A DNA stretch of 64,000 nt from Patescibacteria group bacterium UBA4787 (GTDB lineage: Bacteria > Patescibacteriota > Patescibacteriia > UBA2591 > UBA4787), in the NCBI GenBank assembly GCA_002402995.1, contig DHGX01000004.1, forward strand, positions 85,186-149,185, read 5' to 3'. Of this stretch, positions 40 through 62,122 are shown piece by piece. The position numbers and the translations under genes are program-made. Below the pieces are notes generated by a model, which was not told the origin of the DNA, did no database searches, and worked only from the letters and a program-made list of their open reading frames with translations. Every line of letters begins with the position of its first letter. The stretch's first letter is position 1.

Positions 40-1089
40 ATGGGCAGCTCGGCATATTATGGTAATATGATGTTTAAAGAATCAATTTTATATCGAAAAT
101 TAAACAAACAAATAGTTCAATGCCAAACCTGCGCTCATTATTGCATTATCAAGCCCGGTGAGCGGGGTTTTTGCGGTGTACGAGAAAATCAAAATGGGAA
201 GCTTTATGTTTTAAATTATGGTAAGATTATCGCGCTTAATATCGATCCAATTGAGAAAAAACCACTATTCCATTTTTTGCCAGGCAGTCAGTCTTTGTCA
301 TTAGCTTCGGCCGGCTGTAATCTTGCCTGCGCGAACTGCCAGAATTGGGAAATTTCCCAGAGCCCGCGATTATATAAAAAAATAGAAGGAAACAATATTA
401 AACCGGTAGAAATTATTAAAATTGCTCGAGAAAATAATCTCCCATCAATTTCTTATACTTATACAGAGCCGACAATTTTTTTAGAATATGCGCTGGAAGT
501 AATGAAATTAGCAAAAAAAGAAAAGATAAAAAATGTTTGGGTCAGCAATGGTTTCATGTCTCCGGAATCGGCCAAGCTTGTCATCCCCCATCTCGCGGCC
601 AACAACATTGATCTCAAAAGCTTCTCAGATGATTTTTACCAGCAGAGTTGCGGGGCACGATTAGCGCCGCTCCTTGAAACATTAAAATTAATGAAAAGGG
701 GCGGAGTATGGCTGGAGATTACCACTTTGGTTATTCCCACTCTTACTGACACAGAAGAAAATTTTAGACAAATTGCCAAATTTATTTATGATCAATTAGG
801 CGCAGAAACTCCGTGGCACATCAGTCGTTTTTCCGGAGCAATTTCTTGGAAATTAAATAACCTGCCCGACACGCCGATAAAAACGCTAAAATTGGCTTAT
901 AAAATTGGCCAAGAAATCGGCCTTAAATATATTTACGTGGGCAATGCGACGGAATTAAATTTAGAAAATACTCATTGTCCCAAGTGCAACAATCTTTTAA
1001 TACGAAGAACGGGTTATGAGATTTTTCGTTTTGATAAAAACGGTAAATGTCCCAAATGTTACGAAAGTGTTAATCTAATCATTGATTAG
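40..1089 (+). CDS. AmmeMemoRadiSam system radical SAM enzyme (pyruvate formate-lyase activase-like)
   Basis: 349 aa. The CNLACANCQNW motif (CxxxCxxC) and the upstream FCGVREN...IDPIEKKPLFHFLPGS block are typical of the AmmeMemoRadiSam radical SAM family. Confidence 0.8.
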   Translation: MGSSAYYGNMMFKESILYRKLNKQIVQCQTCAHYCIIKPGERGFCGVRENQNGKLYVLNYGKIIALNIDPIEKKPLFHFLPGSQSLSLASAGCNLACANCQNWEISQSPRLYKKIEGNNIKPVEIIKIARENNLPSISYTYTEPTIFLEYALEVMKLAKKEKIKNVWVSNGFMSPESAKLVIPHLAANNIDLKSFSDDFYQQSCGARLAPLLETLKLMKRGGVWLEITTLVIPTLTDTEENFRQIAKFIYDQLGAETPWHISRFSGAISWKLNNLPDTPIKTLKLAYKIGQEIGLKYIYVGNATELNLENTHCPKCNNLLIRRTGYEIFRFDKNGKCPKCYESVNLIID

Positions 1090-1182: not shown

Positions 1183-3813
1183 ATGAATAATTTTACCATT
1201 AAAGCTCAAGAAGCTTTGCAAAACGCCCAGAATATAGCTATAGAAAACAATCAACAGCAAGTTGACTCTGCTCATCTGGCTTTTTCTCTTCTTATTCAAG
1301 AAGAAGGGATTATTCCAACAATTTTACAAAAACTAGAAGCTGATTTTGATAAAATAAAAAATAAAATTTCAAAAATCATTGAATATATTCCGCAAACACA
1401 ATTGCCAGGTAGTGTCGGTTTAGCCGAAATGTTTATCACCCCCCTTCTTCAAAAGACGCTCTTTCAGGCGACCAAAGAAGCTCAACAATTTAAAGATGAA
1501 TACGTAAGCACCGAACATCTTTTTCTGGCTATTTTAATCGTACCGTCTATTATAAAAGACGTTTTTAAGGAATTTAACGTTGATCACGACAAGGTTTTGA
1601 AAGTATTGGTTACTATCCGCGGCAATGAAAAGATTACAGAACCGGAACCGGAAAGCAAATATCAGGCGTTAGAAAAATATACTACAAATTTAACCGATAT
1701 GGCTCGTCGCGGGAAAATTGATCCCGTTGTTGGAAGGGATGACGAAACGAGGAGGGTAATACAAATACTTTCTAGAAGAACAAAAAACAATCCGGTTTTA
1801 ATCGGTGAAGCCGGCGTTGGTAAAACCGCCATTGTCGAAGGATTAGCTCAAAGAATCGTAAGCGGAGAAGTGCCGGAATCCCTTAAAAATAAAGAATTAA
1901 TTTCTTTAGATTTAGGAGCTCTTATTGCCGGAACGAAATTTAGAGGCGAATTCGAAAATCGTCTAAAAGCTGTTTTAAAAGAAATTAATAAATCCGGTAT
2001 TTATATTTTATTTATTGACGAGCTGCACACCCTTGTAGGCGCCGGAAGCGCGGAAGGAGCGGTTGACGCTTCAAATATGTTAAAACCTGCGTTAGCGCGA
2101 GGAGAACTTCATTGCATCGGCGCTACCACCCTAAAAGAATATCAGAAATATATAGAAAAAGATCAAGCTTTTGAAAGAAGATTTCAACCGATTTATGTTG
2201 TCGAGCCATCAACAGAAGATGCAGTTGCTATTCTCAGGGGTATTAAAGAAAAATATGAAATTCATCATGGCATTAGAATTACCGACGATGCTATTACCGC
2301 AGCCGTTAAATTTTCCCAACGCTATATTACTGATCGCTTCTTACCGGATAAAGCTATTGACTTGATTGACGAATCCGCGTCTTCCTTAAGAATGGAGATC
2401 GAAAGCCAGCCGGAAGAATTAGACAAGCTAAAAAGAAAAATTAAACAATTAGAGATTGAAAAAACAGCCATCGGCAATGATAAAGGAGTCAAAGAGCAGA
2501 TTAAAAAAATAGAAAAAACCATGGCTGATCTAAAAGAGAAAGCGGTTGATTTTGAATTGAGATGGAGAACAGAAAAAGAATTAATTTTGAACATTAAATC
2601 GTTTAAAGGAAAGATTGATAATTTTAAACAAGAAGTTAAAGAGAACGAACGTCGAGGCGATCTTCAGAAAGTGGCAGAAGTTTTGTATGGTAAAATACCG
2701 GAAGCCGAAAAACAGCTTGGAGCAACACAAAACAAATTATCTAAATTGCAGAAAAATAAAAGAATTTTGAAAGAAGAAATTACCGAAGAAGATATTGCCA
2801 AAATAGTGTCTCGTTGGACTGGCATACCCATTAATAAAATGATGGAAGAAGAAACTAAGAAATTACTAGAGTTCGAAAACGAGATTCATAAACGATTAGT
2901 CGACCAGGAAGAAGCCGTTAAGGCCGTGGCTAACGCTATTAGAAGATCACGAAGCGGACTAGGAGAGGAAAATCGTCCAATCGCCTCTTTCATCTTTTTG
3001 GGTCCGACGGGTGTAGGAAAAACAGAATTAGCCAAGGCTTTGGCAGAATTTATATTTGATAGCGAATCAGCGCTAGTTCGTTTTGATATGTCTGAATATT
3101 CCGAAAAATATACCGTATCCAGAATGATCGGAGCGGCGCCAGGATATGTCGGTTATGAAGAAGGCGGACAATTAACAGAAATTATAAAGCGTCGTCCCTA
3201 TAGCGTTATTTTGTTTGATGAAATTGAAAAGGCTCATCCGGAAATCTTTAATATTCTATTGCAGATTTTAGACGACGGTCGTTTAACTGACGCGAAAGGC
3301 AGGACGATTAATTTCAAAAATACGATTATTGTTATGACATCGAATATAGGTAGCGAGATAATACAGGCGCACGTCAAAAGCGCCGGTGGTTTTGGTTTTA
3401 CGCCGAAAGAAGACAGCGCTCAGTCCAATAAAGACTTGCAAGAAAAAATAAATTCTCTGTTAAAAGAAAATTTTAAACCCGAGTTCTTAAATCGTGTTGA
3501 CGAAATTATTACTTTTCAATCGTTAAATAAAGATGATATTAAAAAAATCGTTGATCTTCAGCTTAACAAGGTAAATAAAAGATTAATTGAAAAGAGAATA
3601 GACCTGGAGATAACCGAATCTGCTAGAGCTTTAATTGCCGAGAAGGGCTATGATCCGGTTTTCGGTGCCCGACCGCTTAAAAGAGTCATTCAGAGAGAAA
3701 TTTTAGATCCACTATCCTTAGAAATAATTAAAAGTAAAATTAAAGAAGGAAGCGTAATCAAGGTTGACGCCGTTAATAATAAAATTTCTATTAGTAAAAT
3801 TAGTAAAAAATAG
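1183..3813 (+). CDS. clpB: ATP-dependent chaperone ClpB
   Basis: 876 aa with an N-terminal Clp domain, two AAA+ modules ([12 protein letters not shown] and [15 protein letters not shown] Walker A motifs), a long coiled-coil middle domain and a C-terminal domain. Confidence 0.95.
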
Positions 3814-3849
3814 TTATATTATAAGTCTCAATCCGTCGTCTGACGGAGA

Positions 3850-4641
3850 TTATAGTTTAAAGTTGGCTATTAAATAGCCAACTCCGAATGGTCCCTCGTA
3901 AGAAATGACCTCTGTTTTGTATTTGGTCTCAAACAGAATACTCATTAAAACCAGTAAAGAACGAAAACCGCATTCCCCTGCTTCTTCAAGAAGTGATTCG
4001 TCTAAGTCAAGCAAAGACTTAATTGCTGTTTTTGGTTTCTTGATTATATCAACAATTTTTTGGTCAAATATTATTCCCCGCGGTGAATAGCCGGCCGGCG
4101 CGTCAACCGTTAAGCGATGGGATAGGTCACCCGATGCGACAATAGCCACCTTCTTGTTAGATTTTAGGATTTCTTCTTTTAAAAGCGCGCCAAATTTTAT
4201 ATGTGTGTCGCGATCAAGTGAAGAATAACTCAGTGGTATTATGTTGAAATTGTTTAAATAGCGGCTTAAATAATAAAGAGGGACGCTTACGCCATGGTCT
4301 AGAATCTGATCGCTAATCATGGTTAGGGGTATTTTTGTTTCCATGCCTTCTCTTATTTGATGTGCCAACTTAATATCACCTTTAAATTTTAATTGCGTTG
4401 ATAAATCTCCGAAGTCTTTAAGGTTGCCGTAATAATCTTCGGATAAATTAATACAAAAAGCATCGCCGAATATCTGTCCGTGCGGTGAAATTATTATGAT
4501 CGTTTCCGGCGCGGCTTTGCCGATTTTTTTAGCTAATGTGCCAAATCCGCGAACCGTTTTTTTTATAAATTTTATATTTTCTTTCCCAACAGAAGGCACG
4601 GCAATGGGTGGATGAGGAACAAAGGCAGCAAAGTTTAACAT
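3850..4641 (-). CDS. AmmeMemoRadiSam system protein B (Memo1/LigB-like)
   Basis: 263 aa. Memo-family motifs are present (PHPP near the N-terminus, SPHG, GDLSHRL). Confidence 0.75.
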   Translation of the reverse strand: MLNFAAFVPHPPIAVPSVGKENIKFIKKTVRGFGTLAKKIGKAAPETIIIISPHGQIFGDAFCINLSEDYYGNLKDFGDLSTQLKFKGDIKLAHQIREGMETKIPLTMISDQILDHGVSVPLYYLSRYLNNFNIIPLSYSSLDRDTHIKFGALLKEEILKSNKKVAIVASGDLSHRLTVDAPAGYSPRGIIFDQKIVDIIKKPKTAIKSLLDLDESLLEEAGECGFRSLLVLMSILFETKYKTEVISYEGPFGVGYLIANFKL

Positions 4642-4662: not shown

Positions 4663-6030
4663 TTAAAGAGTTGAACTTAAATCTAGGGTTTCACCATCCG
4701 AATGCAATCCTAACACCGTCAAAGAAGTTTCCAAGACATTGGTCCAACCATAGCCAAGCGCTAAAAAAGTTTCTTCATTGGCGATGGCTAGTTTTTTACC
4801 ATGAGATATCACATAAACGGTCGGGTTGTCGTTTAATTTCACGAGAGTTCCGTCGGCGAGTTTAATGGGGTCGCCAATTTTTAATAATTCTAATTCTGAA
4901 TTATTAATTTTATCCAGTGTTCGATAAGAAAAATTGTTATCTAGAATATCTTTTGAGATAATTGGATGAAAGGTGTCGTCGACTACGTAATAAACTGACC
5001 CAGTGTCTATATTTTGAATTAATGAACCGGTTGGATAAGGAGTATTAATCGTCGGCCCGTCTTGATATAGAGCCAGATCCTTTTTATTAACTTCGATAAT
5101 TTCTTCGGGGTTGATTCCTATTTTTTTAACTAATTCGTATCCGTTAAATTTTCTCTTTATGTTTTTAAAAACTAAATAAAAGTTACTTCCCTCTTTTAAA
5201 ACAGAATAGTCGGGAAATAGCATTGGTTCACCGATAGAATATTCAATGAAATCTTTTTGGCTGACGGTTTTGACTTTTTCGTAACTATGACTGGTTAAAA
5301 ATATATTTTTGGAATAGAATGGCCTTTTTGCGTTATTCTGTATAAGCCAAACGCCCGGCTCATTGGCAAGTTTGATTAAAGATCCTTCTGCTAAGGGACC
5401 TTCTTCGTAGCTGAACCATTTATTCCATATTTTCCAAAACAACTTATTGGCTTTAATATAAGGGGTGTAATTATACAGAGCAGCTGTGGCTAAATTTTGT
5501 GGGACAATTAAGCCGGCTGTGGTTTTTGAAGATTGTCCTGGGCGAAATTTAAATTCCCAAGGATGCTTTAAAAAATAATCTAATCGCCAGGCAGCGCTAT
5601 AAACTTGATTGGTAAAGCCCGCGAACCGACTAATGGGCTTCTGGCCGTCATAACAGGCAAAGCCGGTTGCCCAGTCTATTTGGCTTTGTTTTTCCGCTTT
5701 ATTGGTAACCAAAGACTGTTCTTTTTGAATTAAAGTTATTAGTGCTTTAGGATTTATTCCGTGTTTTTGACTGGCGCCAAAAATTATTTCTGAAGAATGT
5801 TTAATTTTGCCGTCTAAATCAGTTACATATAATTCGGCTAAAGCCCCACTCTGTTTTACTAAAAAATTATTTATTTCGTCTAAAGACATTGACTGCGAAT
5901 TAGTCAATTCAAAATCCGAAATAATATAATTTTGATTAAATTCAGAAGTCGCACCAAGCGCATTGCCACAAGGAAAAACGACAAGACCAATAAAAATAAT
6001 AAAAATAGTTTTTTTAATTATTCCATTCAT
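4663..6030 (-). CDS. secreted hypothetical protein (N-terminal signal peptide)
   Basis: 455 aa with a hydrophobic N-terminal signal sequence (FIIFIGLVVFPCGNALGA). No family was recognised by eye. Confidence 0.55.
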   Translation of the reverse strand: MNGIIKKTIFIIFIGLVVFPCGNALGATSEFNQNYIISDFELTNSQSMSLDEINNFLVKQSGALAELYVTDLDGKIKHSSEIIFGASQKHGINPKALITLIQKEQSLVTNKAEKQSQIDWATGFACYDGQKPISRFAGFTNQVYSAAWRLDYFLKHPWEFKFRPGQSSKTTAGLIVPQNLATAALYNYTPYIKANKLFWKIWNKWFSYEEGPLAEGSLIKLANEPGVWLIQNNAKRPFYSKNIFLTSHSYEKVKTVSQKDFIEYSIGEPMLFPDYSVLKEGSNFYLVFKNIKRKFNGYELVKKIGINPEEIIEVNKKDLALYQDGPTINTPYPTGSLIQNIDTGSVYYVVDDTFHPIISKDILDNNFSYRTLDKINNSELELLKIGDPIKLADGTLVKLNDNPTVYVISHGKKLAIANEETFLALGYGWTNVLETSLTVLGLHSDGETLDLSSTL

Positions 6031-6045
6031 TCTTAGTTGGACTAT

Positions 6046-7572
6046 TTATTTTATTTTAAAAATATCTATTTCTTTTAAAGCGGTTTCGGCTAATTTGATA
6101 TGAAGTTGGCTGACAGTATACATCGTAAAAAGAATTTCGCCTTTTTTAATTTTATCCCCCACAACTTTATGAATATAAACACCCGCCTTTTTTTCGCTGG
6201 GCGCGCCCAGTAAACGGCAAATTTCTACTAGATTTTTATTATCAATGTCGATTATTCTGCCATTTTTTTTCGATTTAATAGCTAGTTGCACTGTGCCTTG
6301 TTGGATTCTTTCTGAATTAATATTTTGATTGCCTCCTTGCGCTTTAATAATTTCTTGCATTTTTCTCCAGGCCTTTCGGAGTCTTAAAGATTGTTCTGCT
6401 ATTAATATTCCTTTTCCTTTCGGCGCTTTTCCGCATAATTCCAATAATTTACCGGCTACAATCGTTGATTTTTTTTCTAAATCCATCGGTCTGTTTTCTT
6501 TTTGCTGAAGGACCCTTAAGATGTCTCTTGCTTCTAATGAAGGGCCGATACCTCGACCGATCGGTCCATTGGCCTTGCTAATGGCTACATAAATTTTCAC
6601 GCCGAATCTATTAGCAATATATTTGAATAAGGATTTTAATTCTCGAGCCTCTTTCATGTTTTTGACTTTCGCTGTTTTGCCCACAGGCATGTCGATAATT
6701 AAATATTTTGCCCCCATGGCTAGTTTTTTAGCCATAATACTCACTACCATTTTGGAAAAAGGTTCAATACCTAAATGATACATTGTTTTAAGAATACGAT
6801 CGTCGGCAGGCGCTAATTTTACTGCTCCGCCCCACACCAAACATCCGTTCGTCTTTTTCACCACCCTCTTAATTTTTTTTATATCTAATTGCACCGGAGC
6901 GATAACTTCAAAACTATCGGCTGTGCCGGCGGCCGAAGTAATGGCACGGGAAGATGTTTTGGGTATACAAATGCCTTCACCAGCCAAAATAGCCACTAAA
7001 ATTGGCGTAACTCTGTTGCCAGGCAGCCCCCCTACTGAATGTTTGTCGGCGACACGATTATTAAAATGAAGCATTTCGCCGGTTCCAGCCATCGCTTTGG
7101 TCAAAAAATACATTTCTTCGCGGCTGAAACTTGCTTTGTCAAAGGCGCTGGCCACAAAAAAGGCAATTTGCACTTCGTCCAATCTATGGTCAACTATATC
7201 TTTAATAATGGAATAAATTTCCGAATAAGAAAGGCGTCCACCTAATAATTTTTTTTGTATGGCTTTTACCGAAATCGGCTGCCCGGGCAATAAGAATTCG
7301 ATTAAATTATTATTTTGTATTTTATAAGTATTGGTAATATCCCTAAAGACTCCAACAAAACCGGGTTTAACCAAATCGATAGCTTCAGTAAGCGCTGTTA
7401 CGTTAACCATAACAACGGTTCTGTGTCTATGCCACTTAAAAATTAATTCGTCTCCGGACCGTAGACCGTAGCGCAGAGCATCTTTTTGGTGTAATACCAC
7501 AACCCATGGATGACCGGCTTGAATGTCGAGTTTCTTGGCGCGCAAGAAGATTTTATGACCGTTGTTATTCAT
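6046..7572 (-). CDS. AMP phosphorylase (archaeal-type DeoA/thymidine phosphorylase family with N-terminal extension)
   Basis: 508 aa. The pyrimidine-nucleoside-phosphorylase fold (HSVGGLPGNRVTPILVAILAG, TSSRAITSAAGTAD) plus a ~80 aa N-terminal domain fits the ~500 aa AMP phosphorylases rather than ~440 aa thymidine phosphorylases. Confidence 0.7.
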   Translation of the reverse strand: MNNNGHKIFLRAKKLDIQAGHPWVVVLHQKDALRYGLRSGDELIFKWHRHRTVVMVNVTALTEAIDLVKPGFVGVFRDITNTYKIQNNNLIEFLLPGQPISVKAIQKKLLGGRLSYSEIYSIIKDIVDHRLDEVQIAFFVASAFDKASFSREEMYFLTKAMAGTGEMLHFNNRVADKHSVGGLPGNRVTPILVAILAGEGICIPKTSSRAITSAAGTADSFEVIAPVQLDIKKIKRVVKKTNGCLVWGGAVKLAPADDRILKTMYHLGIEPFSKMVVSIMAKKLAMGAKYLIIDMPVGKTAKVKNMKEARELKSLFKYIANRFGVKIYVAISKANGPIGRGIGPSLEARDILRVLQQKENRPMDLEKKSTIVAGKLLELCGKAPKGKGILIAEQSLRLRKAWRKMQEIIKAQGGNQNINSERIQQGTVQLAIKSKKNGRIIDIDNKNLVEICRLLGAPSEKKAGVYIHKVVGDKIKKGEILFTMYTVSQLHIKLAETALKEIDIFKIK

Positions 7573-7588
7573 AAATTTATATGTGATT

Positions 7589-8581
7589 TCATTTATTGTT
7601 TAAAATCCAAGGATATTTATTTTTTAAAGTTTTACGTAAATTTTTTGGTTTAATAATGCCAAATTCCGTTATAAAGCCGATAATGTATTTTGGCGGTATT
7701 AAATCAAAAGCGAAATTGACAATTTTTAATTTTTTAGGAGCTTGCGGCCAAATTTCTTTTGACGCGCGTTCTTCAATTTTAATCCATGAGGCGGGATGGA
7801 ATTTTAAAAGCGGAGCTGCCACATAAATCGGCACTTTTTCTGTAAATGCCGCAACGGCTATTCCAAAACTGCCAATTTTATTAATAGTCTCGCCATTATT
7901 TAAGATGGCGTCGGCTCCGATTATTATTTTATCAATCATTATCTTCTTTCCGGAATGGCGCGAAATTAAAAATCCAGCAGATGAATCGGTAACCATTGTG
8001 GTATTGACACCAGACTTAATTAATTGCTTGGAAGTAATTCGTCCTTGGAAAAATGGTCGTGTCTCGGTGTTAAAGACTCGAAACCTTTTATTTGATTTTT
8101 TAGCCGAGATAAGAATTTGCTCCACCAACCACGAATGACAATGGGTTAAAACGTTGTCATTGTTCTTTATGATTGATTTGCCGAACGGAATAATTAATTT
8201 AGCCGCATTTTCTATCAAGTGCAAGAATTTGTCGCTTGTTTTTTTGAGGCAATTTTTAGCTTGAACTGTGTCTTTAGGTTTAGTTTTTTTTAATTCTAAT
8301 AAAATGAATTTAACCCCATTTTGAGCCAAAGGCTCGGTTGGCCTGGCAGACAGCAAATAAAAAGCCGCTTTTTTTATGTTGGACTCCCATTCTTTAATCG
8401 TTTTAGACTGATAATTAATGCCATAGTCTCTAAGCGTAAAAATGATAGCCTTAGCTATAGCCGTAGCGCCCTGGATCTTCAGGGCTTTTATATCTCGATA
8501 TGTTTTTAGTAGTTTCTTTTCCATAAAAATGTTATGATTATTTATAAGAGTAATTATACTCTCCGCCAGCTGGCGGATCAC
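7589..8581 (-). CDS. ribose-1,5-bisphosphate isomerase (eIF-2B alpha/beta/delta-like, e2b2 family)
   Basis: 330 aa eIF-2B-like fold. The real start is probably the internal ATG at 8524 (MEKKLLKTYRD...), because the ORF-track start at 8581 is a GTG. It is co-directional with and adjacent to the AMP phosphorylase. Confidence 0.7.
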   Translation of the reverse strand: MIRQLAESIITLINNHNIFMEKKLLKTYRDIKALKIQGATAIAKAIIFTLRDYGINYQSKTIKEWESNIKKAAFYLLSARPTEPLAQNGVKFILLELKKTKPKDTVQAKNCLKKTSDKFLHLIENAAKLIIPFGKSIIKNNDNVLTHCHSWLVEQILISAKKSNKRFRVFNTETRPFFQGRITSKQLIKSGVNTTMVTDSSAGFLISRHSGKKIMIDKIIIGADAILNNGETINKIGSFGIAVAAFTEKVPIYVAAPLLKFHPASWIKIEERASKEIWPQAPKKLKIVNFAFDLIPPKYIIGFITEFGIIKPKNLRKTLKNKYPWILNNK

Positions 8582-8610
8582 TCGTAAAATTACGCAATTT
8601 ATCCATTAAT

Positions 8611-8694
8611 TATACCCGCTTCGCGGGTGAAATTGGGGCGCTCGGAGTCAAATCAAAAGAAGACTTTTGTCTGACATCCTCGCTACCAATTATA
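8611..8694 (+). repeat. family B dispersed intergenic repeat, copy B1 (GAGTATAAT-box element)
   Basis: Matches the consensus TATACTCGCTTTGCTTGTGAAATTGGGGCACTCGGAGTCAAATCAAAAGTAAAACTTTTGTTTGATCTCTTCGCTACCAATTATA. It lies in the divergent region between e2b2 and the AMMECR1 gene. Confidence 0.8.
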
Positions 8695-8724
8695 CCACAA
8701 TATAAAAAAATAGAGAATATAGTC

Positions 8725-9246
8725 ATGACGGATAAATATATAGAATTGGCTTTAAAAACAATAAAAACCTTTGTTAAAGACGACAAAATTATTAACGTAA
8801 ATACGCTTGAATTACCCAAAGAACTAACGGAAAAAAGAGCCGGTACTTTCGTCTCCGTGCATTTGAAAAATGGCGAATTAAGGGGCTGTATCGGCACTTT
8901 TTTGCCCGCGCGGCGCAATATCGCCGAAGAAATTATTTATAACGCGGTGGCCGCGGCTTCAGAAGATCCCAGGTTCTCGCCTATTCGGCCGGAGGAATTA
9001 GATAATTTGGAAATATCCGTTGACATTCTTTCTATGCCCGAGGCTGTTGATTCTGTGAAAAAATTAAATTATAAAAAATACGGCGTGATTGTTAGAAGCG
9101 GCAGAAAAAGCGGACTTTTATTGCCGGACTTAGAAGGAGTAAATACTGTTGAAGAGCAAATATCCATCGCCGCACGCAAAGCCGGGATTGATTTAGAGCG
9201 TGAAAAAATAGAATTATTCAGATTTTCCGTAGAACGACACGAATGA
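8725..9246 (+). CDS. AmmeMemoRadiSam system protein A (AMMECR1 domain)
   Basis: 173 aa with AMMECR1 hallmarks: RAGTFVSVH...LRGCIGT and GLLLPDLEG. Confidence 0.8.
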   Translation: MTDKYIELALKTIKTFVKDDKIINVNTLELPKELTEKRAGTFVSVHLKNGELRGCIGTFLPARRNIAEEIIYNAVAAASEDPRFSPIRPEELDNLEISVDILSMPEAVDSVKKLNYKKYGVIVRSGRKSGLLLPDLEGVNTVEEQISIAARKAGIDLEREKIELFRFSVERHE

Positions 9247-9788: not shown

Positions 9789-10733
9789 ATGAATCATCAA
9801 GATACAAAGTTAATATTTTTTGGCACCGGAAGCTTCGCCGAAATAATTTTAGATTACATAAAGAACGAATTCAAAAACATCTTAATTATAACCGAACCAG
9901 ACAAACCGGCCGGCAGGAAACAAATTTTAACCCCTTCGTTGGTTAAAGTTTTGGCGAATAAATATAACCTAGAGATTTGGCAACCGGACTCAATAAAAAC
10001 TCCGGAATTTATTCAACAAATAAAAGATCAAAAACCGGATATTATCTTGATTGCCGATTACGGGAAGATAATTCCTTTAGATATTATAAAAATACCGCAA
10101 TACGGTTCTTTGAATATTCATCCGTCTTTGCTTCCCAAATATCGCGGCTCCTCCCCTATCCAGAACACTATATTAAATAACGACCAAGAAACTGGCGCAA
10201 CGTTAATGCTGATTGATGAATCGGTTGACCACGGCCCGATAATAACTAATAACAGAATACAAATAACGAATAACAAAATTACTGCCGAAGAGTTGTCAAA
10301 AGAGCTGGCAGAATTAGGCGCAAAATTATTTATAGAGACATTGCCTTTGTGGATAAGCGGAGAAATTAAAGCTATTCCCCAAGATCATTCAATGGCTATT
10401 TTTACGAAAAAAATCAAAAAGGAAGACGGTTTAATTGATTGGTCGTTAAACGCAGAGGCAATAGACGCGCGTTTCCGCGCTTATCAGCCCTGGCCAGGTG
10501 TTTATACTTATTGGCGCAATCAACGCTTAAAAATTATTAAAGCGAATACCCTTGAAATAGACCACAAATTAATATTGGGAACTGTTTTTTTAACTGAAAA
10601 AAAAGAGTTGGCTGTCGCTTGCGGAAAAGACGCTCTAATTTTAGAAGAGGTTCAACTTGAGGGAAAAAAGAAAATAGCGGCTAAAATTTTTTTGAATGGT
10701 TGTCCGGGGGTAGTTGGTTCTATCTTAAAATAA
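9789..10733 (+). CDS. fmt: methionyl-tRNA formyltransferase
   Basis: 314 aa with an N-terminal formyltransferase domain (IFFGTGSFA, SLNIHPSLLPKYRGSSPIQ) and the C-terminal Fmt domain. Confidence 0.9.
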   Translation: MNHQDTKLIFFGTGSFAEIILDYIKNEFKNILIITEPDKPAGRKQILTPSLVKVLANKYNLEIWQPDSIKTPEFIQQIKDQKPDIILIADYGKIIPLDIIKIPQYGSLNIHPSLLPKYRGSSPIQNTILNNDQETGATLMLIDESVDHGPIITNNRIQITNNKITAEELSKELAELGAKLFIETLPLWISGEIKAIPQDHSMAIFTKKIKKEDGLIDWSLNAEAIDARFRAYQPWPGVYTYWRNQRLKIIKANTLEIDHKLILGTVFLTEKKELAVACGKDALILEEVQLEGKKKIAAKIFLNGCPGVVGSILK

Positions 10734-10738
10734 AAAAG

Positions 10739-10784
10739 TCCGCCTTCTCCCGACCGAAGTCGGGATTCGGCGGATGTTCGATTT
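10739..10784 (+). terminator. putative rho-independent terminator after fmt
   Basis: GC-rich nested hairpin (TCCGCC..CCCGACCGAAGTCGGG..GGCGGA) followed by a T-rich tract. Confidence 0.45.
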
Positions 10785-10921
10785 TGTGTTTTCGCTTCGC
10801 TTAAACAAAATCGGCAAGAAATGTCGGCACAAGAATTTTTGATTGGCCATCATGATTTTTTAGGAAATAAAGGTGTGCTTTCCTTTGGATCTTTCTATCG
10901 GATATTTTTCTTCGTTCTTTT

Positions 10922-11197
10922 TTATTTTTTCTCTAAAGCTTTTAGAATATCTATGCCTGCAATTTCGTCTTTGAGGATAAAATTAAGGCTATCCGCGATA
11001 AAAAGCAAATAGAAAAAAGGAGAATTAAATTGTCGCATAAAAATCGCCAATAATCGGTGACGTTTTTCTTTGATTTCGTTGGGGCCGTAAATTTTTAAGC
11101 GACGAATCGCCTCTTATTCAAAAAGGCCATGTTCAGAACTTTCTAAAGCCACAAAGACCTCTTGGGTTGTTTTATTGGTATATTGCGAGAAAAACAT
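10922..11197 (-). pseudogene. N-terminal remnant of a P-type cation-transporting ATPase, with an in-frame stop and truncation
   Basis: The minus-strand translation MFFSQYTNKTTQEVFVALESSEHGLFE*EAIRRLKIYGPNEIKEKRHRLLAIFMRQFNSPFFYLLFIADSLNFILKDEIAGIDILKALEKK* matches the conserved N-terminus of P-type ATPases (S.EHGLS.EEA..RL..YG.NE...K......L..F..QF..P). It has an in-frame TAA at 11115-11117 and ends after ~90 codons, where a full-length protein would exceed 800 aa. Confidence 0.5.
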
Positions 11198-11200
11198 ATT

Positions 11201-11788
11201 TTATTTCTTGTTCTTAAAGAATTCTTCTTTTTTTAATGCCACATCCAATTTATATTTTGCCTTTCCTCCCTTTTTTAATTTTGTTTTAGATAATATTTTA
11301 TAGCCCGATGATTTGAATGCTTTTATGCTCCTGACATTATAATCACTTACTAACCCGAATATCATATCTACTTTTTCCTTTATAAATCCATATTCTGTAA
11401 GCATTTTGATTACGATCGTTCCAATTCCTTTTCCCCAGTATTCTTTTTCGCCTATAATTAAATCTATTCTGCGGCAATCTAATTTCGGATATTTTTTAAT
11501 AATTCTTGAGATATTCATTCTTTGCAACCAGCACTCACCAATTGGTTTTGAATTATATTCAATCATAAAGCACAATCCTCCTTTTCGTGAAACATCACAA
11601 TAGATATCCTTAACTTCTTCAATATCTCTAGATTCAATATCATCTTCTTCGCAATAATATAAAACTTCCGGATCATTATTCCATTTTAGCAGCAAATCCC
11701 AATCTTTTTCTTTTAATGGTCTAAGTTTAATAGAATTTTTTTTTAAGATAGACTTAAGAATTACATTGTGTGTTTTTAGTTTTTTCAT
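11201..11788 (-). CDS. GNAT family N-acetyltransferase
   Basis: 195 aa with an acetyl-CoA binding signature (IGEKEYWGKGIG). Confidence 0.65.
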   Translation of the reverse strand: MKKLKTHNVILKSILKKNSIKLRPLKEKDWDLLLKWNNDPEVLYYCEEDDIESRDIEEVKDIYCDVSRKGGLCFMIEYNSKPIGECWLQRMNISRIIKKYPKLDCRRIDLIIGEKEYWGKGIGTIVIKMLTEYGFIKEKVDMIFGLVSDYNVRSIKAFKSSGYKILSKTKLKKGGKAKYKLDVALKKEEFFKNKK

Positions 11789-15060: not shown

Positions 15061-15886
15061 CTTTAAATCTTAAGTCAAGATATTCTAGCTTTGATCTGTC
15101 TTCAATATATTTAGTTAAGCTCTCTTGTAATTTATAAATTTGATAATTAAAGGTTGAATCACCCAACATATATATTTGCCAATCTTCGTTCGTTGTTATC
15201 TTAATTTGCAAAATATTATTGAGATAATCGATTTCGGCAATTTTAATTTTTACTTCCGGACGAACAGATAAACTAGCAATGTCGTTAACCAATTGAGAGA
15301 TTAAAGAAAAAAAGTTTTTATTCAGCGGTAAAACGGTCTGATCAAGAATAATCGGCAAAGACGACGGTTGTGGCTTTTGATAAATGGGCACAAATCCGAT
15401 TACCGGATCTAAATAATATGAGAAATCTCCATTGGGCTGGAATAAGGCTATCGGCATGATTTCCCAATATTTAATGATTAATTGGTGGGGAAAGTATCTG
15501 ATAATTTTTATTTTTTGGAACGCTTGTTGTTTTAAAACTTCTTTTTCTATCTTATCCTCTTTAATAGTCAAAAGACTATTTTTGCCAAAGAAGAATGAAT
15601 CTTTTTGGACGCGCAGTTTTTCTATTAAATCAAACAAGTCCTTTTCGTCCGCGGGAACAGTGTTTTGGTCAGATTTTATGCTCTTGATGGAAATTTCTCG
15701 AACGTCAAAATAATTATTTTTAATCAACAGCCAAATGAATCCCCCTATTAATATTATAAAAATAATCGAGAAAATTATTAAAACTTTATTTATTTTTCTT
15801 TTTTTTGATTGCCGAGCAACCATCATTTCGTGCCTAACTGCAGATTGATGTTCCGGCGAATTGTTTTTTTTCTTGAAAAGAGGCAT
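15020..15886 (-). CDS. cell division protein FtsQ/DivIB-like (single N-terminal TM, POTRA-like)
   Basis: 288 aa with a basic N-terminus, one transmembrane helix and an extracytoplasmic domain. Its start codon sits inside the target duplication of MITE copy A1. Confidence 0.45.
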   Translation of the reverse strand: MPLFKKKNNSPEHQSAVRHEMMVARQSKKRKINKVLIIFSIIFIILIGGFIWLLIKNNYFDVREISIKSIKSDQNTVPADEKDLFDLIEKLRVQKDSFFFGKNSLLTIKEDKIEKEVLKQQAFQKIKIIRYFPHQLIIKYWEIMPIALFQPNGDFSYYLDPVIGFVPIYQKPQPSSLPIILDQTVLPLNKNFFSLISQLVNDIASLSVRPEVKIKIAEIDYLNNILQIKITTNEDWQIYMLGDSTFNYQIYKLQESLTKYIEDRSKLEYLDLRFKDAIYIKEKNQNNG

Positions 15887-15887
15887 A

Positions 15888-16078
15888 CCAGGTAGTAGAG
15901 ATTCGATGCTTCTCGGGGCGCGATTTATATTAAGGAATGCGATAGAAGCAAAGAATAGTTATTTTATTAATGATGAGACCAAGTAGTGTAACGAAGCGAA
16001 AAGCTTGAAACTTAATACTCCGATGCCTTGGTCGGAGTCCAGACTCTTCGACATCGGGATTGAATTTTCACTACCTGG
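15888..16078 (+). mobile_element. family A MITE, copy A1 (long form, 191 bp)
   Basis: TIRs CCAGGTAGTAGAGATTCGATGCTTC ... ATTGAATTTTCACTACCTGG flanked by CATA at 15884-87 and 16079-82. It is ~90% identical to copy A2 at 44188-44378. Confidence 0.85.
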
Positions 16079-16511
16079 CATATTTTTGTTTAGTAATATT
16101 CGGCTGCTGATTATAGAATGGATGAATTATCTTACGAAGCGCCCTTTTGCCTCCCTGTTTCTCTAAAAATTTCAATCCATTTTTAATCAATAGAAGGTTG
16201 TCTTCATCGTTTTCGTTTGCTAAGCCCACAATCGGAATTTTTAAATTATGAGCTATGAGATTGGCCGTGGTTAAGACAACTCTTATGGAAGTAAAAGATC
16301 CGGGACCATCTATCACAATGATTCCTTCAAGCGCCAAAACATTTTCATTTTCTGCTTTAAGCAAGTTTTCTATTAAATTAAGCAGGTCGCGGCGATAAAT
16401 ATTGCCTTTTGCCGAATATAATTTACCGACAATCTCCGTGTCGTTTTTATCTTTATTTTTAATAAAGGCCAAGTAGATGTCGCTTTTTACCGCGTTAATA
16501 AACAGAATCAT
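16071..16511 (-). CDS. tsaB: tRNA threonylcarbamoyladenosine biosynthesis protein TsaB (YeaZ-like)
   Basis: The core reads MILFINAVKSD...VIDGPGSFTSIRV, carrying the TsaB GPGSFTG-like motif. The ORF-track start at 16595 would read into repeat B2, so the start is placed at 16511. Confidence 0.7.
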   Translation of the reverse strand: MILFINAVKSDIYLAFIKNKDKNDTEIVGKLYSAKGNIYRRDLLNLIENLLKAENENVLALEGIIVIDGPGSFTSIRVVLTTANLIAHNLKIPIVGLANENDEDNLLLIKNGLKFLEKQGGKRALRKIIHPFYNQQPNITKQKYAR

Positions 16512-16536
16512 TGATTGCAAAAATTGATAAATTAGA

Positions 16537-16684
16537 GTATAATTGGCAGTGAGGATATCAAATAAAAGTCTGCTTTTGATTTGACTCCGACTCACCTCGC
16601 TGACCCGCTACGCCAACGCGTTAGCGTGGCGAGAGCTCCGGCGAAGTGTAGCGCCCCAATTTCACGGAGCGAAGCGAGTATAAT
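16537..16684 (-). repeat. family B repeat, copy B2 (long form with nested GC-rich palindromic insert)
   Basis: Reverse orientation. It contains the insert CGCTACGCCAACGCGTTAGCGTGGCGAGAGCTCCGGCGAAG and ends with GCGAGTATAAT about 40 nt upstream of the ATG at 16725. Confidence 0.8.
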
Positions 16685-27689: not shown

Positions 27690-28536
27690 AAAAGAATTAA
27701 AACATAAAAAAATAGAATCTTGGATGTTAGAAGCCGAGATTATCTTGGCTTATATTGTAAAAGACACCAAAGAATATTTGTATGCACATCCAGAAGATGA
27801 ATTAAATAAAAAACAAGAAGCTGGGTTTAGAAAATTAATCCAAAAAAGATTAACTGGTTGGCCAACTCCCTATTTAATCAAACATAGGGAATTTTTTGGT
27901 TTAAATCTTTTTGTTAACCAAAAAGTTTTAATTCCTAGGCAAGCAACTGAATCAATTATTGAGTATATTTTAGAAAATTATAGATTAGACACAAATTCAA
28001 AAATTTTAGAAATAGGAACCGGTTCCGGTTGTATTATAGTTACCTTGGGAAAACTCTTCCCTGTCGCTAAAATTACAGCCGTAGATATCTCTAAATCAGC
28101 GCTAAAGATCGCTGAATTAAATGCTAAAAATAATGTGGTTAGAAATATTAAATTCAGACAAAGCAATTTATTTAACAAAATTAAAGGAAGATTTGATATA
28201 ATTATTGCTAATTTGCCGTATCTTTCGCCGGCCAAAAGCAAAACAATCAAATATGAACCTGTCGTGGCTTTAAACGGCGGCAAGCAAGGGCTGGAAATTA
28301 TAAAAAGATTTTTGTTCCAAGCTCCAAATTTTTTAACACCAAAAGGTAAGATAATTATTGAAATCTCGCCTACTCAAAAAAATGCTCTTATAAAATTTAT
28401 AAAAAAACAACTTACCGATTATCATTTTAATATCGAAATTAGAAAAGACTTATCCATAAAAGATAGATTGGTGATTATAACTGCTTCGCAGTTGAAATTG
28501 GGGCGCCCCACTTCGCCGGAGCTCTCGCCGCGCTAA
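27631..28536 (+). CDS. prmC: release factor glutamine methyltransferase PrmC (HemK)
   Basis: A SAM-binding motif (ILEIGTGSGCI) and an NPPY-like motif (NLPY) lie downstream of prfA. The last ~15 codons (LKLGRPTSPELSPR) are encoded by repeat B3, so the native stop is uncertain. Confidence 0.8.
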   Translation: MPLKSYKNQMKIKEALIWAKKELKHKKIESWMLEAEIILAYIVKDTKEYLYAHPEDELNKKQEAGFRKLIQKRLTGWPTPYLIKHREFFGLNLFVNQKVLIPRQATESIIEYILENYRLDTNSKILEIGTGSGCIIVTLGKLFPVAKITAVDISKSALKIAELNAKNNVVRNIKFRQSNLFNKIKGRFDIIIANLPYLSPAKSKTIKYEPVVALNGGKQGLEIIKRFLFQAPNFLTPKGKIIIEISPTQKNALIKFIKKQLTDYHFNIEIRKDLSIKDRLVIITASQLKLGRPTSPELSPR

Positions 28537-28619
28537 CGCGTTGGCGTAGCGGGTCAGCGAGGCGAGTCGGAATCAAATCAAAAGAAGACTTTTATTTGAC
28601 ATCCTCGCTACCAACCATA
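28476..28619 (+). repeat. family B repeat, copy B3 (long form with GC-rich insert)
   Basis: It overlaps the prmC 3' end. It is the only B copy not placed upstream of a gene start, lying between convergent genes. Confidence 0.8.
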
Positions 28620-36178: not shown

Positions 36179-36184
36179 ACTATG

Positions 36185-36349
36185 TTGGGTAGTGAAAATT
36201 CAATCCCGACGTCGAAGGGTCGGGATTTCGACCAAGGCGTCGGAGTAGTAAGTTTCAAGTTTTCCACTTCGATCTACTATCTGGTTCTATTATTAATAAA
36301 ATAACTATTCTTTGCTTCTATCGCATTCCTTGATATAAATCGCATACCT
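36185..36349 (-). mobile_element. family A MITE, copy A3 (long form, reverse orientation, gene-proximal TIR partly deleted)
   Basis: TATG lies at 36181-84. The copy is ~85% identical to the reverse complement of A1/A2 and ends 3 nt before the ATG at 36353. Confidence 0.7.
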
Positions 36350-42494: not shown

Positions 42495-42526
42495 AGGCTT
42501 GATTTATATATTGAATTATACTCGCT

Positions 42527-42601
42527 TTGCTTGTGAAATTTGGACGTTCAGAGTCAAGTCAAAAGTAAAACTTTTGTTTGAACTTCTCGCTACCAACTAT
42601 A
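42527..42601 (+). repeat. family B repeat, copy B4 (short form)
   Basis: Its TATAAT box lies about 20 nt upstream of the start of the 41763-42494 gene. Confidence 0.8.
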
Positions 42602-44186: not shown

Positions 44187-44187
44187 A

Positions 44188-44378
44188 CCATGTAGTAGAG
44201 ATTCGATGCTTCTCGGGGTGCGATTTATATTAAGGAATGCGATAGAAGCAAAGAATAGTTATTTTATTAATAATAGAACCAGATAGTAGACCGAAGCGGA
44301 AAGCTTGAAACTTACTACTCCGACGCCTTGGTCGGAGTCCCGACCCTTCGACATCGGGATTGAATTTTCACTACCTGA
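44188..44378 (+). mobile_element. family A MITE, copy A2 (long form)
   Basis: TIRs with CATA at 44184-87 and 44379-82. The gatB start codon is the CAT of the left duplication. Confidence 0.85.
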
Positions 44379-44385
44379 CATATTT

Positions 44386-45765: not shown

Positions 45766-45787
45766 AAAAATAGAATATAAAACAAAT

Positions 45788-45932
45788 TATACTCGCTTTG
45801 CTCCTAAAGTTGGGGCGCCCCGCTTCGCCATAGCTCTCGCCACGCTAACGCGTTGGCGTAGCGGGTCAGCGAGGCGAGTCGGAGTCAAATCAAAAGTAAA
45901 ACTTTTGTTTGAGCTCCTCACTACCAATTATA
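45788..45932 (+). repeat. family B repeat, copy B5 (long form with GC-rich insert)
   Basis: Its TATAAT box lies about 22 nt upstream of the sugar transferase start. Confidence 0.8.
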
Positions 45933-54815: not shown

Positions 54816-54975
54816 AATATACCGATAAAAACCATTAAATTAACAAAGAAAGTAAAATAATTATAATCGCTTCGCTCTTGAAATTTACTCGCTCAGGAAT
54901 CAGGTAAAAACCATTTTACCTATTCCCTCGCTCAAAAATTATACTCTAAAACAAAAAAAATGTCAATCAAAATAA

Positions 54976-55200
54976 CTAATATCGGAAAGTTATTCTACCC
55001 TTAGACAAATCATACGGACTCATTTCTATTTTAACTCGATCGCCCATGGCTATTCTAATCCGATTTAGTCTTAATCTTCCAGAAAGATAGGCCAAAATTT
55101 CTTGGCCATTATCTAATTTAACCTTAAAGGTCGTCGAAGGCAAAAGTTCTTCAATGGTTCCGTCTGATTCTAAAAATTCTTCTTTTTTGGCGTTAAACAT
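54976..55200 (-). CDS. infA: translation initiation factor IF-1
   Basis: S1-like OB fold. Two adjacent ATGs lie at 55198-55203, and repeat B6 abuts the start. Confidence 0.9.
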
Positions 55201-57488: not shown

Positions 57489-57511
57489 TTGTGGGATAAA
57501 TATAAATTATG

Positions 57512-57652: not shown

Positions 57653-57653
57653 T

Positions 57654-62121: not shown

Positions 62122-62122
62122 G

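Follow-up and report, generated by a model that had tools for sequence, protein, structure and literature searches.

The question raised by this locus is what becomes of ribulose-1,5-bisphosphate (RuBP) in a bacterium that carries, side by side, archaeal-type genes for an AMP phosphorylase (deoA-like) and a ribose-1,5-bisphosphate (R15P) isomerase (e2b2), with no RuBisCO gene between or beside them. An AMP/nucleoside salvage pathway has been described in CPR bacteria (Wrighton 2016, PMC5113843; Jaffe 2019, PMC6389311). It is thought to be a main CPR route, turning scavenged nucleotides into glycolytic carbon in metabolically minimal cells, and the present locus is one more example of this already known pathway, with its annotation confirmed. 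Judged by sequence comparison, the pair is likely to represent working orthologues of the first two archaeal/CPR AMP salvage enzymes, with a RuBisCO slightly likelier to lie elsewhere in the genome than to be replaced by another sink. The 508-aa deoA-like protein would act by phosphorolysis on AMP, and probably on further NMPs, releasing the base and R15P, which the e2b2 protein would isomerise to RuBP via a Cys/Asp pair; these substrates are the ones we infer for the two enzymes. The RuBP consumer is not encoded at the locus. The relevant part of the window (the whole 64-kb stretch of DNA that was analysed) is organised as follows.

40..1089, plus strand: AmmeMemoRadiSam system radical SAM enzyme, a member of the conserved neighbourhood
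1183..3813, plus strand: ClpB (called gene, identified by its Pfam families), converging on the Memo gene
3850..4641, minus strand: AmmeMemoRadiSam system protein B (Memo gene), LigB/Memo fold, 263 aa, end of the co-directional string
4663..6030, minus strand: 455-aa exported protein with an N-terminal lysozyme/GH73-like domain and four EccB-like repeats
6046..7572, minus strand: deoA-like AMP (NMP) phosphorylase homologue, 508 aa, with an extra N-terminal domain
7589..8524, minus strand: e2b2, R15P isomerase homologue, 311 aa, start ATG 8524
8525..8724, minus strand: intergenic region between the divergent AMMECR1 and e2b2 genes, probably a promoter region, with one copy of a repeat inside
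8725..9246, plus strand: AMMECR1, protein A of the AmmeMemoRadiSam system, transcribed away from e2b2

The first-pass annotation had described an adjacent, co-directional, archaeal-type gene pair in a bacterial context, and both parts of that description hold. The two genes lie on the minus strand with a gap of 16 nt in the list of open reading frames, followed by gaps of 15 nt (deoA to the 455-aa gene) and 21 nt (455-aa gene to Memo), and bacterial markers (RNase P class A, an L10 leader, FtsW and MurB) are found nearby. A hairpin at 3832-3847 separates the ends of ClpB and the Memo gene. The AmmeMemoRadiSam set is complete in the window, each member scoring above its NCBIfam cut-off: AMMECR1 (Pfam 160 bits; TIGR04335 135.9 bits, cut-off 99), protein B (LigB 148.8 and Memo 36.6 bits; TIGR04336 39.5 bits, cut-off 26) and the radical SAM enzyme (TIGR04337 338 bits, cut-off 220).

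The e2b2 reading frame can be extended to a GTG at 8581 (7589..8581, 330 aa). The true start is probably the ATG at 8524, because this codon is conserved while the GTG lies within a repeat element of ~100 nt that has no counterpart at this site in the closest relative; public gene calls likewise give 311 aa. The repeat is specific to this genome, with one copy at 8605-8703 that displays boxes reading TGGTATAAT and GGGTATAAT and a pair of GC hairpins, and ~150 nt of the AMMECR1/e2b2 intergenic region are missing at the same site in the related loci L021 and L022. An RNA leader or riboswitch ahead of e2b2 was considered and rejected, as an Rfam search of this region gave no match even at E<=1 and the additional nucleotides represent one of the dispersed repeat copies.

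The empty RuBisCO position

As had been noted earlier, the window is without a RuBisCO large subunit: motifs of the large subunit were absent from its 64 kb, tblastn with two CPR RuBisCOs gave no match to it, and no such gene was called in the window or in ~4 kb of one flank and ~10 kb of the other (~78 kb together, roughly one-tenth of a genome likely to measure 1 Mb). In a search with the RuBisCO from the nearest relative that carries the operon, none of the 120 best Parcubacteria-type matches listed came from this genome, a listing outside which distant forms (II/III) fall. One bacterial RuBisCO, P0221, was considered as belonging to this organism and rejected, as it comes from another genome, which has its own e2b2 and deoA.

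The nearest relatives are Parcubacteria with e2b2-rbcL-deoA operons (L006, L033, L122 and L123), and the window genes are orthologous to those flanking their RuBisCO. The conserved block in relatives runs AMMECR1, then e2b2, in some cases a HAD gene, rbcL and deoA, then Memo, the 455-aa gene, ClpB and the radical SAM gene, followed by LigT. In L122 and L123, which share the neighbourhood of the window, rbcL sits exactly between e2b2 and deoA, and because of this match the window lineage is seen to have the same cassette minus RuBisCO. The canonical slot is empty in three related genomes, those of the window, L021 and L024. Identities of ClpB, Memo, the 455-aa protein and LigT were near-equidistant across four lineages and did not polarise gain versus loss of rbcL. 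In CPR bacteria generally, deoA and e2b2 are inherited vertically and RuBisCO is sparse, occurring mostly between the two (PMC5113843, PMC6389311).

Two accounts of the RuBP formed at this locus have to be weighed. A RuBisCO encoded elsewhere in the genome is favoured by a small margin over a RuBisCO-independent sink, because RuBisCO is, to our knowledge, the only RuBP consumer in bacteria and because dispersed pathway gene sets have a precedent in the CPR, namely PER-1. The lesser but substantial possibility is that the organism lacks RuBisCO altogether and that the pair feeds another route, for example a RuBP phosphatase and ribulose-1-phosphate (Ru1P) aldolase as in haloarchaea, or some other use of R15P or RuBP. 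Such a route is known in haloarchaea (PMC9700705), and CPR organisms are reported to have carried AMP phosphorylase and R15P isomerase prior to RuBisCO acquisition (Jaffe et al., PMC6389311). The empty slot of the three genomes, in which both flanking genes are nevertheless under purifying selection, and the lack of a candidate from this genome among the 120 best RuBisCO matches listed, fit this account as well. However, neither a HAD phosphatase nor a class II aldolase occurs among the called genes of the ~78 kb, and in haloarchaea the NMP phosphorylase is confined to RuBisCO-bearing species (PMC9700705). The tenth of the genome in view, and a best-120 listing that would omit forms far from the query, also limit what the lack of a RuBisCO match can say for it. 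The narrower proposition, that rbcL was lost or never gained in a Parcubacteria lineage that kept the pair, with the RuBisCO-independent use of R15P or RuBP in a bacterium that this implies, is somewhat unlikely. Should the complete genome prove free of RuBisCO, the clade would offer a clean system for RuBP use without this enzyme, and how RuBP is used in CPR bacteria with deoA and e2b2 only is a question that Jaffe et al. (PMC6389311) left open.

Genes downstream of deoA

The pair had been described as co-transcribed with a secreted protein of unknown function and the Memo gene. The close spacing of the genes, with no terminator, agrees with co-transcription, which would proceed from the AMMECR1-e2b2 intergenic region; a scan of the locus for promoters and terminators found sites no more numerous than expected by chance. 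As a conserved arrangement the string fails, for in L116, L122 and L123 the 455-aa and Memo genes stand behind ClpB on the opposite strand, convergent with deoA. Comparison of gene orders indicates that they follow deoA in the window through a lineage-specific local inversion and not as a conserved operon, and a functional link with deoA is unlikely, since the adjacency stems only from that inversion.

The 455-aa protein is exported, as first described, and its function can be narrowed. No Pfam family reached its cut-off (Peptidase_C13 fell below threshold, 20 vs 22.8 bits) and a PDB sequence search gave no match. The AF2 model (pLDDT 89) resembled EccB1 (E=1e-6) and the autolysin AtlE/LytB (E=1e-2) in Foldseek searches, by which the lysozyme/GH73-like domain and the EccB-like repeats were recognised. 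The family is confined to Patescibacteria (743 matches), with Glu104 invariant. On the strength of this model it is probably a cell-wall protein outside the AMP pathway, and a role as AMP-supplying nuclease or nucleotidase was rejected on account of the same fold and repeats.

That the AMP salvage genes, the AmmeMemoRadiSam system and the 455-aa protein form one functional unit is improbable. Four co-directional genes only 15-21 nt apart, without an intervening terminator, would suit such a unit, as would the placing of the cassette between the AmmeMemoRadiSam A gene and the B and radical SAM genes in the window, L021 and L123 (in L122 the latter two lie downstream). Against it, besides the strand reversal in the three relatives and the hydrolase-like fold of the 455-aa protein, a Prs-like gene occupies the slot beside AMMECR1 in L023, and the locus is set in an extended run of housekeeping genes (fmt, ClpB, LigT and GluRS).

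Identity and maintenance of the two enzymes

The 508-aa protein is a member of the AMP phosphorylase family, a type recognised by a thymidine phosphorylase (TP)-like catalytic core with an extra N-terminal domain of ~85-95 aa. Its Pfam domains (Glycos_trans_3N, Glycos_transf_3 and PYNP_C) begin at residue 103, and the extra domain was confirmed by alignment with the Thermococcus kodakarensis (Tk) AMP phosphorylase 4ga5, in which residues 15-492 of the query match residues 8-477 of the chain. This structure was matched at 351 bits, compared with 126 bits for pyrimidine nucleoside phosphorylase (PyNP). Scores exceeded the cut-offs of NF003338 (520 bits, cut-off 434) and TIGR02645 (513.6 bits, cut-off 435) and fell short of the equivalog cut-off of TIGR03327 AMP_phos (509.9 vs 535 bits). 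The shortfall is a trait of the lineage, since the score is 492-528 bits for CPR orthologues that lie within RuBisCO operons. The protein retains 49/49 family-conserved columns and 11/11 signature columns, and its DKHSVGGLPGN and KTSSRAITSAAGTAD motifs agree with the Tk enzyme, not with the HSTGGVGD and SGRGLGHTGGT of TP/PyNP. The phylogeny called for in the first-pass annotation, a neighbour-joining tree of 112 sequences, placed it with the Thermococcus AMP phosphorylase, split from TP/PyNP with a bootstrap of 1.0. This tree and that of e2b2 were built with a simple distance correction, and support near the closest neighbours of the window clade was 0.3-0.5.

The e2b2 protein belongs to the IF-2B family (Pfam 232 bits), and its top NCBIfam match was TIGR00511 (200.7 bits, below the equivalog cut-off of 314.1), followed by mtnA at 145 bits. 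Orthologues from CPR RuBisCO operons are also low on TIGR00511 (191.4 bits in L006 and 200.0 bits in L109), and sub-cut-off NCBIfam scores were rejected as a sign of non-membership, as the RuBisCO-operon orthologues of both genes score alike. Best PDB matches were the R15P isomerases of Tk and Ph, with 151 bits to 3a11 (Tk). The residues Cys133 and Asp202 (Tk numbering), whose catalytic role in R15P isomerase is established (PMC6423476), are retained, in THCHS and GADAI compared with THCHS and GADSI of Tk. The phosphate-binding residues Arg63, Ser135, Lys213, Lys238 and Arg254 are also kept, Ser135 and Lys238 being those for the 5-phosphate, with Gln replacing Arg20. This change was considered as a sign of altered isomerase function and rejected, as Gln20 is common to the RuBisCO-linked CPR proteins of L006, L015, L019 and L109.

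Grouping with methylthioribose-1-phosphate isomerase (MtnA) had been named beforehand as the result that would overturn the e2b2 assignment, and it was not found. Four MtnA proteins, the whole comparison set, taken from mtnK/MTAP contexts, carry C-N-(A/T) and T238 where the window protein has C133-H134-S135 and K238 as in R15P isomerase, and the MtnA-specific Asn134, Ala/Thr135, Thr238 and Pro23 are not present in it. In the e2b2 tree the four were monophyletic at 1.0, with the window protein outside them, among RuBisCO-operon e2b2 proteins; it paired with that of L021 at 1.0, L033 (from a RuBisCO operon) joined at ~0.6, and the CPR clade was split off at 1.0. The proposal that the gene pair supports placement in the CPR needs qualifying, as archaea and other bacteria also carry it, while its close homologues are all Patescibacteria.

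Purifying selection on both genes is strong, with dN/dS of ~0.09 for each, and 0.16 in the comparison with L021. It is hardly credible, then, that they are functionless and in decay, left over from an e2b2-rbcL-deoA operon that lost RuBisCO. The lack of RuBisCO where relatives carry rbcL might suggest decay, as might the L021 deoA, only 66% identical to that of the window when neighbouring genes are 87-98% identical. However, the reading frames of both genes are intact in three lineages, the conserved columns and catalytic residues are kept, and the divergence of the L021 gene is better explained by allele exchange than by relaxed selection, because its dS is also up threefold. Just as hard to credit is that the genes are an ordinary thymidine or pyrimidine phosphorylase and MtnA: NCBI labels many homologues 'thymidine phosphorylase' and e2b2 passes TIGR00524 (eIF-2B_rel, described as methylthioribose-1-phosphate isomerase; 193.9 vs 185.85 bits), but TP/PyNP models gave only 130-209 bits, far under their cut-offs, against 510-520 for AMP phosphorylase-type models, both trees and the missing MtnA residues speak otherwise, and no mtnK, mtnB or MTAP occurs among the called genes of the ~78 kb.

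Comparison with known systems

Working AMP salvage enzymes remain the preferred reading of the pair, and their archaeal counterpart is the T. kodakarensis pathway of AMP phosphorylase TK0353, R15P isomerase TK0185 and a form III RuBisCO, as summarised from Sato 2007 and Aono 2012 in PMC5113843 and PMC6389311. Both enzyme families are shared with it, including the extra N-terminal domain of the phosphorylase and the Cys133/Asp202 pair and most of the phosphate-binding residues of the isomerase. The window differs in its bacterial (CPR) host, in proteins only ~35-40% identical to the Tk enzymes, in Gln for Arg20 and Trp for Lys136 in the isomerase, and in the lack of RuBisCO at or near the locus. 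With MtnA and TP/PyNP the proteins share superfamilies (the IF-2B fold and the Glycos_transf_3/PYNP_C fold), but they form separate clades, have other substrate-pocket residues and score far under the cut-offs of those families.

[quoted passage not shown] 2022, PMC9700705), which sets a precedent for RuBP being used without RuBisCO. In place of an NMP phosphorylase that pathway relies on guanosine phosphorylase and ribose-1-phosphate kinase, and a HAD RuBP phosphatase and a FucA-type Ru1P aldolase are operon-linked in it (PMC9700705); these last two were not found in the ~78 kb around the present locus. If RuBP use were independent of RuBisCO here, the locus would represent a bacterial analogue of the haloarchaeal route, or an undescribed fate of RuBP.

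The CPR sets of nucleoside-pathway genes in which RuBisCO is of form II/III, III-like or III-c (PMC5113843, PMC6389311) have deoA and e2b2 of the same kind and with the same profile scores. Unlike these, the window has the two genes directly adjacent without RuBisCO, and the 455-aa and Memo genes inverted downstream of deoA. The result is a natural comparison, in which one syntenic block exists with RuBisCO (L122 and L123) and without it (the window, L021 and L024), and the flanking enzymes are kept in both.

The salvage gene pair and its setting

The first-pass annotation proposed adjacent, co-directional genes for a 508-aa AMP phosphorylase-like protein (deoA) and an IF-2B-family putative ribose-1,5-bisphosphate (R15P) isomerase (e2b2), and this was confirmed by ORF calls, Pfam and NCBIfam assignments, and the bacterial context. 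The genes of the region are as follows.

40..1089, AmmeMemoRadiSam radical SAM enzyme (338 bits)
1183..3813, plus, ClpB, convergent with the last gene of the minus-strand string
3850..4641, minus, 263-aa protein, AmmeMemoRadiSam B (Memo; Pfam and NCBIfam)
4663..6030, minus, 455-aa protein (ORF call)
6046..7572, minus, 508-aa protein, deoA (ORF call)
7589..8581, minus, IF-2B protein, e2b2 (ORF call)
8725..9246, plus, AmmeMemoRadiSam A (AMMECR1), divergent from e2b2 (Pfam and NCBIfam)

The four minus-strand ORFs, from e2b2 to the 263-aa gene, are spaced successively by 16, 15, and 21 nt. For e2b2, the ATG at 8524 is conserved and gives 311 aa; the GTG at 8581 lies inside a stretch absent from the site in the nearest relative. 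Bacterial markers in the window and its flanks comprised RNase P class A, an L10 leader, FtsW, RF-1, GatB, TGT, and MurB, and the named entries among the best 120 homologues of the 508-aa protein were all Patescibacteria/Parcubacteria (Moisslbacteria, Liptonbacteria, Paceibacterota, Minisyncoccia).

All three AmmeMemoRadiSam components were present, surrounding the e2b2-deoA cassette. The A, B, and radical SAM genes are separated by the e2b2-(rbcL)-deoA cassette (rbcL being the RuBisCO large-subunit gene), ClpB, and the 455-aa gene, a split layout repeated in the relatives whose loci span both sides of the cassette (among L021, L122, and L123, the last of which shows the whole block), where ClpB was just 63-69% identical.

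Two families of intergenic repeats were also found in the window.

8605-8703, minus, family 1
16528-16684, plus, family 1
28474-28619, minus, family 1
42515-42601, minus, family 1
45786-45932, minus, family 1
near 54860-54960, minus, family 1, degenerate copy
55195-55293, minus, family 1
56349-56447, minus, family 1
15884-16087, family 2
36181-36344, family 2, inverted
44184-44387, family 2
57497-57670, family 2
62105-62266, family 2
62508-62680, family 2

Family 1, which is dispersed, comes in two sizes, roughly 90 nt and, with a 60-nt GC-rich insert, roughly 150 nt; it begins with (G)TATAATTGGTAGCGAGGA, carries a conserved hairpin, CAAAAGTCTTCTTTTG, and finishes with GCGAAGCGAGTATAAT, and its 17-nt 3' motif gave 7 matches against 0.09 expected. 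Copies usually sit close ahead of a gene that points the same way, and 8 nt separate the final TATAAT of the murB copy from the ATG. Family 1 was not found in the relatives' loci, and Rfam gave no match. Copies of family 2 measure 165-200 nt, with identity between them reaching 95%.

Assignment of the two enzymes

The 508-aa protein did not fall among the thymidine and pyrimidine nucleoside phosphorylases (TP/PyNP). In a neighbour-joining tree of 112 sequences (200 bootstraps), including 98 homologues from fetched loci and matches, the Thermococcus kodakarensis AMP phosphorylase (Tk-AMPpase), E. coli DeoA, and three PyNP sequences transcribed from PDB alignments, TP/PyNP were split from all others with support of 1.0. 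The best structure match was Tk-AMPpase (4ga5/4ga6, 351 bits) over residues 15-492, an alignment that takes in the extra N-terminal domain, compared with 126 bits for the top PyNP and about 80 bits for E. coli TP. The protein has Glycos_trans_3N, Glycos_transf_3, and PYNP_C domains (Pfam), and scored 520 bits with NF003338, 514 with TIGR02645, and 509.9 with the AMP phosphorylase model TIGR03327 (cut-off 535), while the NCBIfam TP/PyNP models gave no more than 130-209 bits. Its loops DKHSVGGLPGN and KTSSRAITSAAGTAD are those of the Tk enzyme, unlike the TP/PyNP equivalents HSTGGVGD and SGRGLGHTGGT. It kept 49/49 conserved columns (at least 93% conservation across 108 AMPpase-like sequences) and 11/11 columns separating the AMPpase family from TP/PyNP.

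Neither did e2b2 group with the S-methyl-5-thioribose-1-phosphate isomerases (MtnA), represented by four plasmid genes that lie in mtnK or MTAP operons. In a neighbour-joining tree (500 bootstraps) the four MtnA were monophyletic (1.0), the window protein paired with that of L021 (1.0) and then with L033 (about 0.6), and their CPR clade was split from the Tk enzyme, another archaeal sequence, and MtnA (1.0). The protein scored 232 bits with IF-2B, 200.7 with the R15P isomerase model TIGR00511 (cut-off 314), and 145 with the mtnA model; its best structures were the R15P isomerases of Tk (3a11, 151 bits) and Pyrococcus (5yfj, 146), against 117 for Thermotoga MtnA. Of the residues with roles in R15P isomerase (PMC6423476), it has Cys133, His134, Ser135, Asp202, Asn212, Lys213, Lys238, Arg254, and Arg63, whereas the MtnA counterparts include Asn134, Ala/Thr135, Thr238, and Pro23. 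Since MtnA has Ala/Thr135 and Thr238, the 5-phosphate holders Ser135 and Lys238 are, judged by alignment, of the R15P isomerase type. Departures from the Tk enzyme are Arg20 to Gln and Lys136 to Trp; Gln20 is common to CPR e2b2 proteins inside RuBisCO operons (L006, L015, L019, L109), and L033, whose operon is e2b2-rbcL-deoA, has the stretch THCHSWLVEQILI unchanged.

The two checks that the first-pass annotation had named as able to overturn its claim thus left it standing. Both proteins scored under the NCBI equivalog cut-offs (TIGR03327, TIGR00511). Because CPR orthologues within RuBisCO operons fall short by the same margin (191.4 and 200.0 bits with TIGR00511; 491.6, 505.1, 509.5, and 528.5 with TIGR03327), the low scores reflect CPR divergence and not another family.

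The missing RuBisCO gene and the rearranged block

That the window lacks RuBisCO was borne out: no large-subunit motifs were present in its six reading frames, tblastn of the window with two CPR RuBisCOs gave no match, and no RuBisCO Pfam was found in the called genes of the window plus about 4 kb past one end and 10 kb past the other. Among 120 Parcubacteria-type RuBisCOs listed for the RuBisCO of L033, the closest relative with a RuBisCO operon, none was assigned to the window's genome.

Two relatives, L122 and L123 (GCA_028715115.1, Patescibacteria group bacterium), share the neighbourhood gene for gene (deoA identity 60% and 56%), in the following order.

fmt <- 153aa <- AMMECR1 / e2b2 -> (HAD) -> rbcL -> deoA / Memo <- 455aa <- ClpB <- rSAM / LigT -> GT2 -> GluRS -> M23

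The whole block is visible in L123; L122 begins partway into e2b2, its upstream end being outside the sequence. The window, L021 (neighbouring genes 87-98% identical to those of the window), and L024 carry the same block minus rbcL and the HAD gene, and the 455aa-Memo segment is inverted in place, so that it now lies behind deoA. Moisslbacteria locus L116 retains deoA / Memo <- 451aa <- ClpB, without e2b2 or rbcL, and the conserved unit in other loci is (rSAM)-ClpB-455aa-Memo. As 455aa-Memo is on the opposite strand in L122, L123, and L116, the grouping of the salvage genes with Memo and the exported protein is derived and local. The proposed co-transcription retains its four co-directional ORFs with 15-21-nt gaps, but the association itself is a product of local inversion.

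The identities of ClpB, Memo, 455aa, and LigT leave the lineages nearly equidistant and do not separate loss of rbcL here from its gain in the others; Jaffe et al. favour lateral RuBisCO gain by lineages already possessing deoA and e2b2 (PMC6389311). Six deoA matches (P0008, P0009, P0011, P0013, P0020, P0036) have RuBisCO matches on the same contigs, and these, Moisslbacteria, and the Prs-linked L023 were the nearest neighbours of the window clade in the deoA tree, with weak support (0.3-0.5).

The inverted segment's 455-aa product had been called a secreted protein of unknown function. The hydrophobic N-terminal leader agrees with the first part; the second gives way to a predicted lysozyme/GH73-like domain and EccB-like repeats. 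No Pfam family was above cut-off, and the family is restricted to Patescibacteria and annotated 'hypothetical protein'. In a Foldseek search with an AlphaFold model (57 homologues, mean pLDDT 89), EccB from type VII secretion systems matched the four repeats at the C-terminus (E about 1e-6), and two GH73/lysozyme-like autolysins, AtlE and LytB, weakly matched the N-terminal domain (E about 1e-2; target TM about 0.4). Glu104 is invariant. It is best read as a predicted cell-wall-binding or -hydrolysing protein. This fold argues against a nucleotide-scavenging enzyme, and 'exo-alpha-sialidase', the NCBI name of one homologue, found no support in the model or its Foldseek matches.

Several other arrangements were seen among the relatives. 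In L123 (8066-8689) and L109 (9264-9677), both of which carry RuBisCO, e2b2 and rbcL are separated by an HAD-family hydrolase gene; the haloarchaeal RuBP (ribulose-1,5-bisphosphate) phosphatase is an HAD enzyme as well (PMC9700705). In most of the closest metagenome deoA relatives (48-61% identity), a PRPP-synthetase-family gene, not e2b2/rbcL, is directly upstream of deoA (L023, 6813-9450; L029-L052, L055; about 21-25 loci); that of L023 (TIGR01251, 189 bits, cut-off 113) fills the slot beside AMMECR1 that e2b2 has in the window. Short-form deoA homologues without the N-terminal ~95 aa (L008-L013, L018, L058-L060, L063, L075, L078, L081, L083, L084, L095) come from MAGs labelled Gammaproteobacteria, Levyibacteriota, and Acidiferrales and form their own clades in the deoA tree, with no e2b2 or rbcL within 10 kb. 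The Patescibacteria contig L019 has two deoA paralogues (5891-7414 and 10001-11464) either side of rbcL, in the order e2b2-deoA-rbcL-deoA, and in these genes TGA serves as a sense codon, as it does in the Absconditabacterales loci L015 and L020.

Proposed pathway and comparison with the CPR gene set

By orthology, the 508-aa enzyme would convert AMP or other NMPs and phosphate to base and R15P, and e2b2 would convert R15P to RuBP; the described reaction relies on Cys133 and Asp202 and passes through a cis-phosphoenolate (PMC6423476). In relatives, form III-type RuBisCO turns RuBP, CO2, and H2O into two 3-phosphoglycerate (PMC5113843, PMC6389311); at the window locus this third, RuBP-consuming step is without a local gene. 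RuBisCO may be encoded elsewhere in the genome, for which the PER-1 genome, with deoA/e2b2 and RuBisCO on separate scaffolds, provides a precedent. It is also possible that RuBP or R15P has another fate, by analogy with the haloarchaeal non-carboxylating pathway (PMC9700705), although neither an HAD phosphatase nor an aldolase turned up in the window and flanks. That the pair is a decaying remnant is unlikely, since both ORFs are intact in 3/3 lineages (window, L021, L024) and dN/dS is low: 0.09 for e2b2 (window versus L021 and L024) and 0.09 for deoA (L024), in the same range as neighbouring housekeeping genes (0.02-0.18).

The deoA genes of the window (6046-7572) and L021 (10001-11515) form one clade (bootstrap 0.99) but share 67% identity with a dS of 1.5, compared with 81-98% and 0.24-0.78 for the flanking genes, which points to gene-specific substitution of a diverged same-clade allele by recombination rather than relaxed constraint.

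Unless the complete genome turns out to be without RuBisCO, the locus is of modest interest. The CPR AMP/nucleoside pathway gene set is well described, and the window pair is a member of it, not new in kind; what is particular to this locus is that rbcL is cleanly missing from an otherwise conserved block, that both flanking enzymes are retained under purifying selection, and that an inversion has appended two unrelated genes behind deoA.
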